Of a DNA stretch of 64,000 bases, positions 5,341-63,725 are shown piece by piece; the first letter of the stretch is position 1; each line of letters starts with the position of its first letter. Position numbers and translations under genes: made by a program. Below the pieces are notes generated by a model, which worked only from the letters and a program-made list of their open reading frames with translations, ran no database searches and was not told where the DNA came from. This DNA is from Tepidisphaeraceae bacterium. Its GTDB lineage: Bacteria; Planctomycetota; Phycisphaerae; Tepidisphaerales; Tepidisphaeraceae. The stretch lies in NCBI GenBank assembly GCA_035998445.1, contig DASYHQ010000050.1:89647-153646 (forward strand). The letters are read 5' to 3'.

Positions 5341-5640
5341 AAGGGGGGAGGGGAAAATCCCAAGTCCCAATGACCAACAAATGACCAAACACCAAATCCC
5401 AATCAAGCGGACATGCTCCGCTCCCCTCTCCCGCATGCTTCGGGAGAGGGTCAGGGTGAGGGTGATTTCGAACTGCTGGCGATCCTCGTAAGAACAAAGG
5501 CACCCTCACCTAACCTCTCCTGGAAGTACCGGGAGAGGGACCGGAACGCGCCTCTTCCGACTGATCTTTGGGATTTGGTCATTTGTTGGTCATTGGGACT
5601 TGGTCATTGCGTCCCCTCCCCCTCCCCTCCATTTGACACC
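5341..5640. repeat. Composite palindromic repeat of family B (ctctccc..gggagag / ggtgagggtgatttcg) plus family D (aatgaccaa/ttggtcatt arms)
   Basis: Large inverted repeat: 5360-5405 versus 5565-5610. B-type motifs at 5413-5545. Copies recur at 18450-18575, 20855-21120, 50835-50895, 55250-55385 and 57835-57960. Confidence 0.8.
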
Positions 5641-9872: not shown

Positions 9873-9968
9873 CGTCATCCTGAGGCTCGCCGAAGGATCT
9901 CTTTCCGTCACCCCAGGCGTAAACAGCAGAGATTCTTCGGCGTATCTGGGGATGACGTTTTTCGTTTC
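9873..9968. repeat. Family-C MITE-like element (termini cgtcatcctgagg / cctcagggatgacg-like) followed by a T-run. It probably acts as the accC intrinsic terminator.
   Basis: Nested inverted repeats (gaaggatctc...gagattcttc) and gatgacgtttttcgtttc immediately after the hairpin. Confidence 0.65.
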
Positions 9969-10000
9969 TGACCGACCTTCAACGCACTCAGGTTCACCCC

Positions 10001-14167: not shown

Positions 14168-14270
14168 GCGTCATCCTGAGGGAATCTAGACGACCGAAGG
14201 ATCTCTTTCGCGGACCACGCGTCCTGCTGGAAGAGATCCTTCAGTCGCCTGGGCTCCATCAGGATGACGC
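14168..14270. repeat. Family-C MITE-like palindromic element
   Basis: gcgtcatcctgagg ... ccatcaggatgacgc termini with an internal gaaggatctc / gagatcctt inverted repeat. Confidence 0.7.
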
Positions 14271-15906: not shown

Positions 15907-15936
15907 CGTCATCCTGAGGTACTCCGAAGGATGACG
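15907..15936. repeat. Truncated family-C hairpin (cgtcatcctgaggtactccgaaggatgacg) downstream of aroDE
   Basis: 8-bp stem cgtcatcc/ggatgacg. Confidence 0.6.
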
Positions 15937-18449: not shown

Positions 18450-18575
18450 GACGGCACTCCTACTCCTCTCCCGGTACGCCGGGAGAGGCTGGGTGAGGGT
18501 GATTTCCGTTCTTCCGACAGTCGTCAGCAGTCCGAAATCACCCTCACCCAGCCTCTCCCATGAATACATGGGAGA
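18450..18575. repeat. Family-B composite palindrome
   Basis: ctctcccggtacgccgggagag, ggctgggtgagggtgatttc ... gaaatcaccctcacccagcc, ctctcccatgaatacatgggagag. Confidence 0.8.
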
Positions 18576-20713: not shown

Positions 20714-20854
20714 GCGTTGTCCTCGTTTCTGCTCGGTCACTCTATGTCGGTCGATACTAGCCCTGCCTGTAGGGACCGTCAATCAAAGGCCGGACGCGCG
20801 GGTGGCGCGATAATGTTTTCGAAGTGGGAAGTGAGAAAGGCGAAGGGAGGGACT

Positions 20855-21120
20855 CCGGCCCCTCTCCCGGTACGCCGGGGGAGGCTGGGTGGGGGTAAAT
20901 TATGAAGCAAATGACCAATGCCCAAACCCGAATGACCAATGAAATCCCAAGGATCAATTCCCAATAGTGGCATTCTCTTTAATGGGGATTGGTGATCGGG
21001 CATTCAATGGTCATTCGGGTTTGGGCATTGGTCATTGCGTTCCGCGCTGCTCGTCATTCGAAATCACCCCCACCCAGCCTCCCCCGGTGTACCGGGAGAG
21101 GGGCCAGAGGGCCGCGCCCA
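20855..21120. repeat. Family-B/D composite palindromic element
   Basis: ctctcccggtacgccgggggagg ... aatgaccaatg / cattggtcatt arms ... ctcccccggtgtaccgggagagg. Confidence 0.8.
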
Positions 21121-27161: not shown

Positions 27162-27266
27162 TGTCATCCCGAGCGGAGCCTCAGGCGACGGGAGGGATCT
27201 CGACTGTTCGAGCGACTCTCGTGCAATCGAGATCCCTCAGGTCGGCAAGCCTCCCATCGGGATGAC
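27162..27266. repeat. Family-C MITE-like element (gtcatcccgag ... cgggatgac subtype)
   Basis: Nested inverted repeats gggagggatctcg ... cgagatccctc. Confidence 0.7.
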
Positions 27267-30004: not shown

Positions 30005-30083
30005 GTAGGGGCAGGCCTCCGTGCCTGCCCTCTTCGCTTCTCCCCGCGCACTGAAGAGGGCAGGCACGGAGGCCTGCCCCTAC
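30005..30083. promoter_or_regulatory. Perfect 31-bp inverted repeat (gtaggggcaggcctccgtgcctgccctcttc, 17-bp spacer) in the divergent intergenic region. It is related to the family-A hairpin repeats.
   Basis: The reverse complement of 30053-30083 equals 30005-30035. Each arm contains an inner hairpin gcaggc-ctccgt-gcctgc. Confidence 0.7.
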
Positions 30084-30927: not shown

Positions 30928-31010
30928 CGTCATCCTGAGGTACGCCGAAGGATCTCTTCGATCCGACGGAGAGTACGGGGGGAGATCCTTCGGAGTACCT
31001 CAGGATGACG
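30928..31010. repeat. Family-C MITE-like element between the nfeD-like gene and flotillin
   Basis: cgtcatcctgaggtacgccgaaggatctc ... gagatccttcggagtacctcaggatgacg. Confidence 0.75.
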
Positions 31011-32945: not shown

Positions 32946-33084
32946 TCGGTTGGTTTCGTCACGACGACGCACCCGGGGCAGACGACCGCGTCTGCCCCTG
33001 ATGCGTTGTCGTGACGCTGCCTGTCGAACGGTTTGAACCGCCAAGGCCGCCAAGAGCACCAAGAGCTTCTCAGTTTCCTTGACA

Positions 33085-33375
33085 CGTCATCCTGAGAGGG
33101 TGTCAAAGAACACGCTCGGGTCCGCCTTTCACGTGGCATGGGCGTCTCGCCCATGCGTGTGGAATGGAACAACAAATGCCTTTTGTGGGTGACTGCGCTG
33201 ACCAAGCCGCAGGCTCTAAATTGAGTCTTCCGGCCCCACGACACGCATGGGCGAGACGCCCATGCCACGGTCGGAGCGGCCGCGGCACTGTTCTTTAGCA
33301 TCGCCTGTGGTGCTCCGAAGGATCTGTTCGATTCCGCGGGTGCCAGGAGATCCTTCGGAGTACCTCAGGATGACG
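33085..33375. mobile_element. Full-length (~290-bp) family-C MITE-like element with GTCATCCTGAG termini and internal catgggcgtctcgcccatg palindromes
   Basis: The termini cgtcatcctgag (33085) and ctcaggatgacg (33375) are inverted. The short ~100-bp copies elsewhere share the same ends and sub-terminal gaaggatct repeats. No transposase is encoded. Confidence 0.45.
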
Positions 33376-33404: not shown

Positions 33405-33545
33405 TTGGCTGTCTCTTCTGTAGGACAGGCATTCCTGCCTGTCTCTACCCCCCTCTCCCCGCTTTCTGTGGCACAGACATTCCTGTCTGTGTCTCCCCCC
33501 GTCCCCCTGTCTTCGAGCGGGGCAGACATTCAGGTCGCTGCGATT
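33405..33545. repeat. Array of three to four degenerate family-A hairpin units (same family as 3340-3540)
   Basis: tctgtaggacaggcattcctgcctgtctc / tctgtggcacagacattcctgtctgtgtctc / gcggggcagacattcagg. Confidence 0.75.
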
Positions 33546-35063: not shown

Positions 35064-35315
35064 CTGCAGCGCTGCAACGCCCCTCTGCACCGCTGCAACG
35101 TCATGCTGCAGCGCTGCAATGGCGCGCTGCACCACTGCAATGACGCGCTGCACCACTGCAATGGCACGCTGCACCGCTGCAATGTCGCGCCGCACCACTG
35201 CAGTGGCACGCTGCAGCGCTGCAGCGTCCCTACGCAGCGCTGCCGCGCCGTCCTGCAGCGCTGCAGCGTCTTCCCGCAGCGCTGCACTCCTGCGCCGCAG
35301 CGCTGCCGCACCCCC
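35064..35315. repeat. 12 tandem copies of a 21-bp unit (consensus ctgcaSYRctgcaRNGNNNNN)
   Basis: Units counted directly. The period of 21 keeps every frame open. The minus frame reads as heptads like TLQRCSVPLQWCGA. Confidence 0.85.
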
Positions 35316-50685: not shown

Positions 50686-50895
50686 GTCATCCCGAGCGGA
50701 GCCTGAGGCGACGGGAGGGATCTCAATTGGCCGCGCAGTTCTCGCCCAGTGGAGCTGCCTCAGGTCGGCAAGCCTCCCAGCGGGATGACGCGGGTTCTGA
50801 TAACGCCCTTCATTAGCTACTCCGGCGTTTGCCGCCGTTCGAAATCACCCTCACTTAACCCTCTCCCGGCGTACCGGAAGAGGGACCGGAATTGG
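50686..50895. repeat. Family-C element (50686-50790) followed by a family-B hairpin (50835-50895) between DUF58 and the BatA-like gene
   Basis: gtcatcccgagcggagcctgaggc ... cgggatgacg, then cgaaatcaccctcac ... ctctcccggcgtaccggaagagg. Confidence 0.7.
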
Positions 50896-55249: not shown

Positions 55250-55385
55250 CGCTCCGGCCCCTCTCCCGGTATTCCGGGGGAGGCTGAGAGGGGGTGAGTT
55301 TGCCTTAATAGATTCGCCAGCCGTTCGAAGCACCCCCACCCTAACCCTCCCCCGGAGTACCGGGAGAGGGAACCAGACGAACTCA
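55250..55385. repeat. Family-B palindromic pair
   Basis: ctctcccggtattccgggggagg and ccctcccccggagtaccgggagagg. Confidence 0.75.
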
Positions 55386-56674: not shown

Positions 56675-56813
56675 GCGACAAGTTATATCCGACGGGCACC
56701 GCCCTTTCGAGTTTTTGAGGCCAGTCGACGACCGACGACCGGTTATCGGACGGTGACCTCCTCGCCATTCGGGCGAGGGCCGGACTTGGTTGCGGTGCCA
56801 GATAACCCGAGTG

Positions 56814-56918
56814 TCATCCCGAGGAAAGCGGCAGCGACCCGAGGGATCTAGAACATGGGAGAGTCACTCGGATGTGGGAGATCCCTCACGTCGCTACCGC
56901 TCCCGTTCGGGATGACGC
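56814..56918. repeat. Family-C MITE-like element
   Basis: gtcatcccgaggaaagc ... gggatctag ... gagatccctc ... cgggatgacg. Confidence 0.7.
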
Positions 56919-57834: not shown

Positions 57835-57960
57835 GGCACCTCTCCCCTTACTCATGGGAGAGGCTGGGTGAGGGTGATTTCGTTCCAAATGAGAGGCGCC
57901 AGCAGTTCGAAATCACCCTCACCTAGCCTCTCCCGGAGTACCGGGAGAGGGACCGGAGGA
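57835..57960. repeat. Family-B composite palindrome
   Basis: ctctccccttactcatgggagagg, ctgggtgagggtgatttcg ... cgaaatcaccctcacctag, ctctcccggagtaccgggagagg. Confidence 0.8.
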
Positions 57961-63648: not shown

Positions 63649-63725
63649 CGTGCCCACGAATGAGCACGAAGGAACACGAATAAGAATGCATTTATTCGTG
63701 TCTATTCGTGCTCATTTGTGGGCAC
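63649..63725. other. Nested palindromes (outer gtgcccacgaatgagcacgaa / ttcgtgctcatttgtgggcac, inner acacgaataa / ttattcgtgt) between the DAHP synthase gene and tpiA
   Basis: Seen directly. Confidence 0.65.

Follow-up and report, generated by a model that had tools for sequence, protein, structure and literature searches.

The CGTC superfamily of bacterial repeats is defined by a CGTC or TGTC tag and a stem of 8-9 bp that begins with AT (Di Nocera, De Gregorio and Rocco 2013, BMC Genomics 14:522, PMC3733652). The units have a loop of 4-5 nt and a 3-nt tail. They occur mostly as head-to-head (HH) dimers with the tags on the outside, are found in five phyla and have no associated transposase (PMC3733652). 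Members include the Neisseria dRS3/NTS repeats, RPE-4 and RPE-6 of Rickettsia and the alphaproteobacterial CGTC-1 to CGTC-4 (PMC3733652). SsnA, a GIY-YIG nuclease of small size, binds the Neisseria repeat NTS (CGTCATTCCCGCGMAVGCGGGAATCYRG) in single-stranded DNA and cleaves it (PMC11893778). The cut is made just upstream of the tagged hairpin and is strand-specific, and SsnA is inactive on double-stranded DNA or RNA (PMC11893778). The NTS loop is dispensable, and both changes in it and extensions of it are tolerated (PMC11893778). Across bacteria the ssn genes carry such repeats on their flanks, as in the arrangement NTS-ssnA-NTS (PMC11893778). CGTC-tagged repeats were an orphan class until the tie between Ssn and NTS was made in 2025, and the repeat family described here appears to extend this pairing.

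The window, which is the whole 64-kb stretch of DNA that was analysed, contains eight copies of a dispersed repeat. It lies on a metagenome contig of 441 kb, and NCBI assigns its proteins to Tepidisphaeraceae (Phycisphaerae, Planctomycetota). Each copy is a head-to-head dimer, with the tags outward, of a REP-type unit of approximately 28 nt that belongs to the CGTC-tagged superfamily. The copies represent a probably new member of an already known kind of repeat, the CGTC-tagged REP or Ssn-related kind, and are probably distinct from CGTC-1 to CGTC-4. The reading that we favour as likely is that they are non-autonomous CGTC-tagged REP dimers that show no target-site duplication and have a probable partner of the Ssn family elsewhere in the genome. 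The partner is proposed from related loci and its mode of action by analogy.

All eight copies listed in an earlier note were present, with coordinates good to within 1-2 nt (Table 1). The motif GTCATCCYGAG, with up to one mismatch, occurred 15 times in the window compared to 2.59 ± 1.66 times in shuffled sequences, where the maximum was 7. The window has nine GGATGAC heptamers, of which eight belonged to the copies. The sub-terminal inverted motifs RGGATCTC and GAGATCCY were also found in the copies, as had been noted. The family with sharply conserved ends that the note had proposed is therefore genuine and is not a set of convergent hairpins, and its description as non-autonomous within the window was supported. 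Two sub-types were recognised. The T/A sub-type (GTCATCCTGAG..GAAGGATCTC) comprises copies 1, 2, 3, 5 and 6 and the C/G sub-type (GTCATCCCGAG..GAGGGATCT) comprises copies 4, 7 and 8. Folding of the seven short copies gave long, imperfect hairpins (z-scores -3.0 to -11.3). No Rfam covariance model matched at gathering thresholds in the whole window, and a search around copies 5 and 6 at E ≤ 10 returned nothing relevant.

Table 1. Positions of the eight repeat copies in the window, with copy 6 divided into its parts.
Feature	Position	Description
Copy 1, T/A type	9873..9957	97 nt past the accC stop codon; degenerate right arm (GAGATTCTTCGGCGTATCTGGGGATGACG), followed by TTTTTCGTTTC
Copy 2, T/A type	14168..14270	In the PFK-aroDE spacer; 14-nt arm loops; ortholog in L005
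Copy 3, T/A type, collapsed	15907..15936	CGTC-ATCCTGAG-GTACTC-CGAAGGAT-GACG
Copy 4, C/G type	27162..27266	Divergent intergenic region; 20 nt upstream of the Asp-Al_Ex gene start
Copy 5, T/A type, cleanest dimer	30928..31010	Left arm 30928-30956 (CGTCATCCTGAGGTACGCCGAAGGATCTC); central spacer 30957-30981; right arm 30982-31010
Copy 6, T/A type, outer part of left arm (CGTCATCCTGAG)	33085..33096	Cut off from the rest of the arm by the insertion
Copy 6, foreign 213-bp insertion in the left-arm loop	33097..33309	Inverted pair of GTGG-tagged REP hairpins
Copy 6, remainder	33310..33375	End of left arm (GTGCTCCGAAGGATCTG), central spacer and intact right arm (33347-33375)
Copy 7, C/G type	50686..50790	Between the DUF58 and BatA genes (both on the minus strand); inner motifs degenerate
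Copy 8, C/G type	56813..56918	Between the AP_endonuc_2 and response-regulator genes (both on the minus strand)

In each unit a (C/T)GTC tag and a 3-nt tail (CTC) enclose a hairpin with a stem of the form ATCCY-GAG / CGA-RGGAT and a loop of 5-6 nt or longer. The consensus of the dimer is Y-GTC-ATCCY-GAG-[arm loop]-CGA-RGGAT-CTC-[central spacer]-GAG-ATCCY-TCG-[arm loop']-CTC-RGGAT-GAC-R. Its ends were sharp. Across 94 elements from many organisms position -1 was C (40) or T (51) and position +1 was G or A, and the flanks beyond were unrelated. The GTC of the tag is fixed. Window copies start with CGTC, with the exception of copies 4, 7 and 8 which start with TGTC. The stem opens with an A-T pair, the A-T state being present in 274 of 304 arms, and continues with T-A (290 of 304). 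It contains five Watson-Crick pairs followed by a tandem G.A/A.G and one or two G-C pairs. CTC followed RGGAT in nearly all arms. The GAG-CGA segment was 4-6 nt long in 97 of 168 arms and 11-29 nt long in the other 71, and with the next C-G pair taken as part of the stem the loop proper amounts to 3-4 nt. Small hairpins of their own were common in the long arm loops.

The two arms of a dimer had unequal loops in 44 of 84 dimers, differing in length in 36 and by at least three mismatches in eight. Unequal loops cannot pair across arms, and the conserved unit is therefore the arm and not the long hairpin. The Y/R state was coupled inside arms, with TATA counted 58 times and CGCG 20 times, and a few arm chimeras were present (TACG 4, CGTA 1). 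The mixes TGCA and CATG are permitted by a simple long hairpin, and neither was seen. With the five stem positions unconstrained, double changes that compensate each other were found inside single arms in several lineages. These were ATGCT/AGCAT (9), ATTCT/AGAAT and ATTCC/GGAAT (5), and GTCCT/AGGAC (4). A formal count of the helix within 59 distinct 28-nt arms gave 95.4% standard pairs. Double-change cells numbered 33 compared to 9.4 in shuffles, a value reached by none of 500 shuffles, and slid controls were all far lower. There were 87 strict arm pairs. Nearly every arm that seemed unpaired had a slightly degenerate partner, true singletons were rare, and all copies in the window were dimers or derived from dimers.

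In several respects these repeats match the published superfamily. An unpaired CGTC or TGTC tag stands at one end of the unit, the first stem pairs are A-T and T-A, and the tail is 3 nt long. Head-to-head dimers with outward tags predominate (with spacers of 20-100 bp in the superfamily), both heterodimers and homodimers occur, the copies are intergenic and no transposase is associated. The differences lie in the details of the unit. The stem here, ATCCYGAG/CGARGGAT, contains a tandem G.A mismatch whereas that of the superfamily is a perfect 8-9 bp. The tail is CTC compared to CCA in the published consensus, and the central spacer is shorter at 9-37 nt. Arm loops are often 11-29 nt with small hairpins inside them, in contrast to the published 4-5 nt. 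Planctomycetota, Acidobacteriota, Chloroflexota and many other phyla in which the family was found here are outside the five phyla of 2013. No sequence in the supplements of the 2013 CGTC paper and the 2018 paper fitted the family. The peptides listed for intragenic copies (VIPAKAGI, VIAGLDPAI, VIPWLDHGI and others) were unlike those that the window-type repeats would encode. A full-text literature search for the motif or its junk peptides returned primer coincidences only. The published SRM motif HGTCWYN(0-2)YYVSBRHN(0-5)WNVSBRGN(0-2)RNCYNB fits NTS but does not fit the T-type, C-type or window arms, and its sole match in the window was unrelated.

The 291-bp copy had been read in the earlier note as a parent MITE and the copies of around 100 bp as its deletion derivatives. 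Neither proposal held. Copy 6 is an ordinary dimer whose left arm is broken after CGTCATCCTGAG by the insertion and continues at 33310 (GTGCTCCGAAGGATCT), and its extra length is this nested insertion. Its right arm matches that of copy 5 exactly. No ORF was found in the 291-bp copy. The two internal palindromes reported for it, CATGGGCG(TCT/AGA)CGCCCATG, were found and lie in the insertion. The core of the insertion is GTGG-CATGGGCG-TCT-CGCCCATG at 33133-33155 with its mirror at 33246-33268, and the long inverted-repeat arms extend over 33105-33160 and 33241-33296. The insert, nested in the arm loop, consists of two GT[AG]G-tagged REP units joined head to head, and REPs with this tag are of another superfamily. 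The 30-nt copy is a single arm in which the opposite tag, GACG, replaces the CTC tail. It looks like a collapsed dimer, and a deletion reaching from one direct AGGAT repeat to the other may have produced it.

A species scan was carried out with a three-part pattern and one genome per species, and gave at least 120 matching stretches. Among the matches listed, the architecture was present in more than 15 phyla-level groups. These matches included Acidobacteriota, Chloroflexota, Legionella massiliensis, L. bononiensis, Vineibacter, Gemmatimonadota and Kiritimatiellia, as well as Verrucomicrobia, Clostridia, Armatimonadia, Omnitrophota, Bdellovibrionota, Planctomycetota and others. Copies within one genome had lineage-specific loops in common, which is expected from amplification and not from convergence. 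The consensus dimer gave no blastn match to plasmids. All-against-all blastn of the loci gave no pairs close enough to serve as filled and empty orthologous sites. Six viral contigs from IMG/VR (L006-L011) bear the element, of which L007, L009 and L011 are the same phage. Viral carriage is a possible route of transfer between hosts. In Thermoanaerobaculia MAGs (Acidobacteriota; L032, L042, L055 and L115) the dimers occurred in tandem arrays with a period of approximately 148 nt, and long spurious ORFs with repeated peptides of the VVILSRRSATKDL type run through these arrays.

Two relatives were informative for the history of single copies. In L005, a syntenic relative with 75% aroDE identity, an orthologous copy 2 was found in the PFK-aroDE spacer. 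The unusual 14-nt arm loop was shared, and changes in the apical stem were compensated. A different palindrome family, which is also present at 63650-63725 of the window, occupied this spacer in L004 (74% identity). Copies 1 and 3, which lie downstream of accC and aroDE, were absent from the matching spacers of both L004 and L005. Copies can therefore be old, be replaced and be lineage-specific.

A possible protein partner was indicated by loci from other organisms. Among approximately 120 random element loci one, L019, had a dimer abutting an Ssn-like ORF, which alone is not significant. The GIY-YIG gene at L019 was found only by tblastn. The start codon of this ORF (~160-190) is the ATG inside the terminal GATGACG of the dimer. 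The N-terminus of the L019 protein was used as a query and 29 proteins were recovered, ranging in size from 88 to 108 aa and all containing PF01541. At 74 of 80 metagenome loci encoding Ssn-like proteins a YGTCAT-tagged hairpin was located within 350 nt of the gene. The repeats at the 80 loci usually converge on the gene and their stems vary by locus. Contigs carrying Ssn-like genes were mostly 0.5-3 kb long, as if metagenome assemblies were routinely broken at ssn genes by the repeats on their flanks.

Arms or dimers of the architecture described here were located directly at small GIY-YIG (Ssn-type) genes at six independent loci from other organisms (L019, L215, L216, L217, L219/L220 and L221, L218 being uninformative); the seven closely inspected ssn loci were picked by protein similarity to the L019 case, and some of the organisms may simply be repeat-rich. 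L215 and L216 encode the closest homologues of the L019 protein and have the order CGTCATCCTG...AGGATCTT / gene / GAGATCCTG...ATGACG. The stop codon in both is a TGA that overlaps the GAGATCC of the repeat. L217 (P0135) has dimers on both sides of the gene and a right arm that is exactly of the C/G type seen in the window. A dimer is located 13 nt upstream of the gene in L219/L220 (P0150). L221 (P0151) has the order arm, gene, arm, with repeats of the type GTCACTCTGAG-CTTTGC-CGAAGAGTCTC and its mirror, and its stems are compensated (ACTCT/AGAGT). The flanked Ssn-like proteins are 92-97 aa in length and contain PF01541. Their size, single domain and similarity point to the cd10448 type.

No ssn-like gene was found in the window or in approximately 10 kb upstream of it. 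A cognate transposase had been expected. Going by the related loci, a small GIY-YIG nuclease of the Ssn type is more likely, and the cognate protein is probably such a single-domain nuclease, whose gene would lie elsewhere in the genome with the same arms on its flanks. The resemblance to the NTS/SRM-Ssn system (Chenal et al. 2025, Nat Commun 16:2388) includes the CGTCAT-tagged hairpin, the repeat-gene-repeat arrangement around a GIY-YIG gene of ~95 aa, the freely variable loop, and the association of different nuclease lineages with different stems. The present family differs in that its arms are almost always dimers and that the sub-clade of the cognate nuclease is proposed from six loci only. 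The function in Neisseria, which is restriction of transforming single-stranded DNA, should not be assumed for a planctomycete.

By analogy with Neisseria SsnA, the cognate Ssn would recognise the tagged hairpin in single-stranded DNA and cut it. Pairing of the nuclease with the repeat would maintain the tag and stem. Under such a pairing the tag and stem would be conserved while loops vary freely, stem changes would be compensated inside the arm, and a foreign element would be tolerated in an arm loop. The arm-ssn-arm unit may represent the autonomous counterpart of the window dimers. A more ambitious reading is that arm-ssn-arm is an active mobile element in which the GIY-YIG nuclease acts as the 'transposase' of hairpin-tagged DNA, the window dimers being cargo-less miniatures and horizontal spread having carried the element to more than 15 phyla. 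We regard this as speculative and rather doubtful. If it were true, nuclease and repeat specificities would co-vary, as the T/A, C/G, ATGCT and ACTCT stem variants suggest.

Other explanations for the family were considered. The earlier note had classed the copies as MITEs. On this view they would derive by deletion from an insertion sequence that encodes a DDE transposase and be mobilised in trans through terminal inverted repeats, with the 291-bp copy nearest to the parent. The copies share several features with bacterial MITEs such as Correia/NEMIS, ERIC and Nezha, including a size of ~80-150 bp, inverted ends, long hairpin transcripts and an intergenic location. Conserved inverted ends with sharp boundaries fit this origin, and so do the lineage-specific loops, which are consistent with recent amplification as in the Vineibacter copies, and the spacers of L004 and L005 that lack copies 1 and 3. 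However, the MITEs named above have target-site duplications (TA in Correia) and IS-derived ends, and no modular tagged hairpin arms. The check for target-site duplications in the 94 elements, at offsets 0-3 and k = 2-8, gave counts equal to the shuffled expectation. No transposase-bearing IS with the same ends was found among the ORFs of the ~120 element loci (8 kb per locus). Clustering of the ORFs around these loci for an associated gene gave only large housekeeping families and junk ORFs that run through the repeats, with no recurrent transposase-like ORF. What is conserved is a REP-type arm with compensatory changes of its own, rather than a terminal inverted repeat. The arms behave as independent hairpin modules in their variation and recombination, and the length of the 291-bp copy is accounted for by the nested foreign REP dimer. 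An origin as classical MITEs is thus given only a very slight chance.

The copies might also be REPINs of the GTAG/RAYT system, in which dimers are moved by a REP-associated tyrosine (HUH Y1) transposase. The layout is alike, with inverted REP doublets in a hairpin, no target-site duplication and an intergenic location, and the genome also hosts GTAG/GTGG-tagged REP dimers (30005-30083, 33133-33268 and 33410-33530). REPINs and RAYTs (Bertels and Rainey 2011; Nunvar 2010; Ton-Hoang 2012) resemble the present family further in that inverted doublets of short palindromes form one long hairpin, that a probable protein partner is encoded elsewhere and flanked by the repeats, and that both persist for long periods in lineages, an orthologous copy here being retained at ~75% protein identity. 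The tag is (C/T)GTC here, however, and not GT[AG]G, and the candidate enzyme is a GIY-YIG protein and not an HUH tyrosine transposase. CGTC repeats are reported not to flank tyrosine transposase genes (PMC3733652). Regex screens of the ORFs in the fetched loci for HUH/Y1 and GIY-YIG proteins, which were crude, found nothing, and the flanked genes that were actually found encode GIY-YIG proteins. Membership of the GTAG/RAYT system is considered highly improbable. Class 3 Y1 transposases of Planctomycetes and Acidobacteria are associated with 'CnGA-foot' hairpins (PMC6006769). These were considered as a partner and no sequence link to the arms was established.

A role of the copies in RNA was also considered. 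Six copies lie between co-directional genes, 19-126 nt beyond the upstream stop codon of called genes. The copy at 33085 is between convergent genes and the copy at 27162 between divergent genes. The description of the family as located mostly at gene 3' ends is literally true for seven of the eight copies, but this is the same as the approximately 75% expected of any intergenic element. It had been suggested that the copies were co-opted as transcription terminators. A G+C-rich hairpin followed by a T-run on the transcribed strand, as in an intrinsic terminator, was found for copy 1 only, downstream of accC; the other seven copies have no T-run and terminator-like sites were not enriched. The copies could instead be host-selected RNA elements, either intrinsic terminators or 3' stabilisers, that are alike by convergence or because selection acts on the RNA. 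In agreement with this, seven of the eight copies adjoin a gene 3' end on one or both sides, the hairpins are highly stable and a T-run lies behind copy 1. The other palindrome family in the PFK-aroDE spacer of L004 would also agree, as if some hairpin were needed there. Against it stand the single T-run among eight copies, the lack of enrichment of terminator-like sites, the copy in a divergent promoter region and the absence of an Rfam match. Near-identical 11-nt motifs in more than 15 phyla among the matches listed, together with a conserved unpaired tag, are not convergence. An asymmetry of G.U (G.T) over A.C by transcribed strand gave no signal in a crude comparison where the ORF-based context was unreliable and misassigned the window copies. 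Selection as RNA elements is therefore judged improbable, and if the copies do act at RNA 3' ends this would be a secondary role.

The family is very widespread, occurs in soil and water phyla including Planctomycetota, Acidobacteriota, Chloroflexota and others, and escapes the published SRM motif. Its stem is distinctive and its dimer form almost obligatory. If the link to Ssn holds, its nuclease and target pairs would be new ones for single-stranded DNA tools. The family is also a natural system for the study of how such repeats multiply. In annotation the repeats yield many spurious ORFs. Examples are the peptides VILSEAKDL, HPERSEGS and EILRCAQDD.

Other palindromes were present in the window. 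A perfect inverted pair of 31 nt, GTAGGGGCAGGCCTCCGTGCCTGCCCTCTTC and its mirror, is located at 30005-30083 with GTAG/CTAC outermost, and has the appearance of two GTAG-tagged REP units arranged head to head (REPIN-type). A cluster of GTAG/GTGG-tagged hairpins (GTAGGACAGGCATTCCTGCCTGTC and GTGGCACAGACATTCCTGTCTGTG) is located at 33410-33530, just downstream of the 291-bp copy. The 730-nt spacer that holds the 291-bp copy, this cluster and a hairpin at 32957-33016 is a mosaic of at least four palindrome families. The palindrome at 63650-63725, GTGCCCACGAATGAGCACGAAGGAACACGAAT and its mirror, is the one that fills the PFK-aroDE spacer in L004 (~9900-9990), where the window has a CGTC dimer. Nested palindromes at 20853-21109 have CTCCGGCCCCTCTCCCGGTACGCCGGGGGAGG... 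arms around a palindrome of the AATGACCAATG type. A related pair is present at 5343-5620, and the CTCCGGCCCCTCTCCCGGTACGCCGGGGGAGG motif was found again at 55259-55370. Two near-identical palindrome copies, GGGAGAGGCTGGGTGAGGGTGATTTC and its mirror, are located at 18481-18559 and 57856-57934, with arms of 26-27 nt and a spacer of 25-27 nt. Dense overlapping inverted repeats of GCAGCGCTGC units extend over 35064-35306, in or beside ORFs with no Pfam match.
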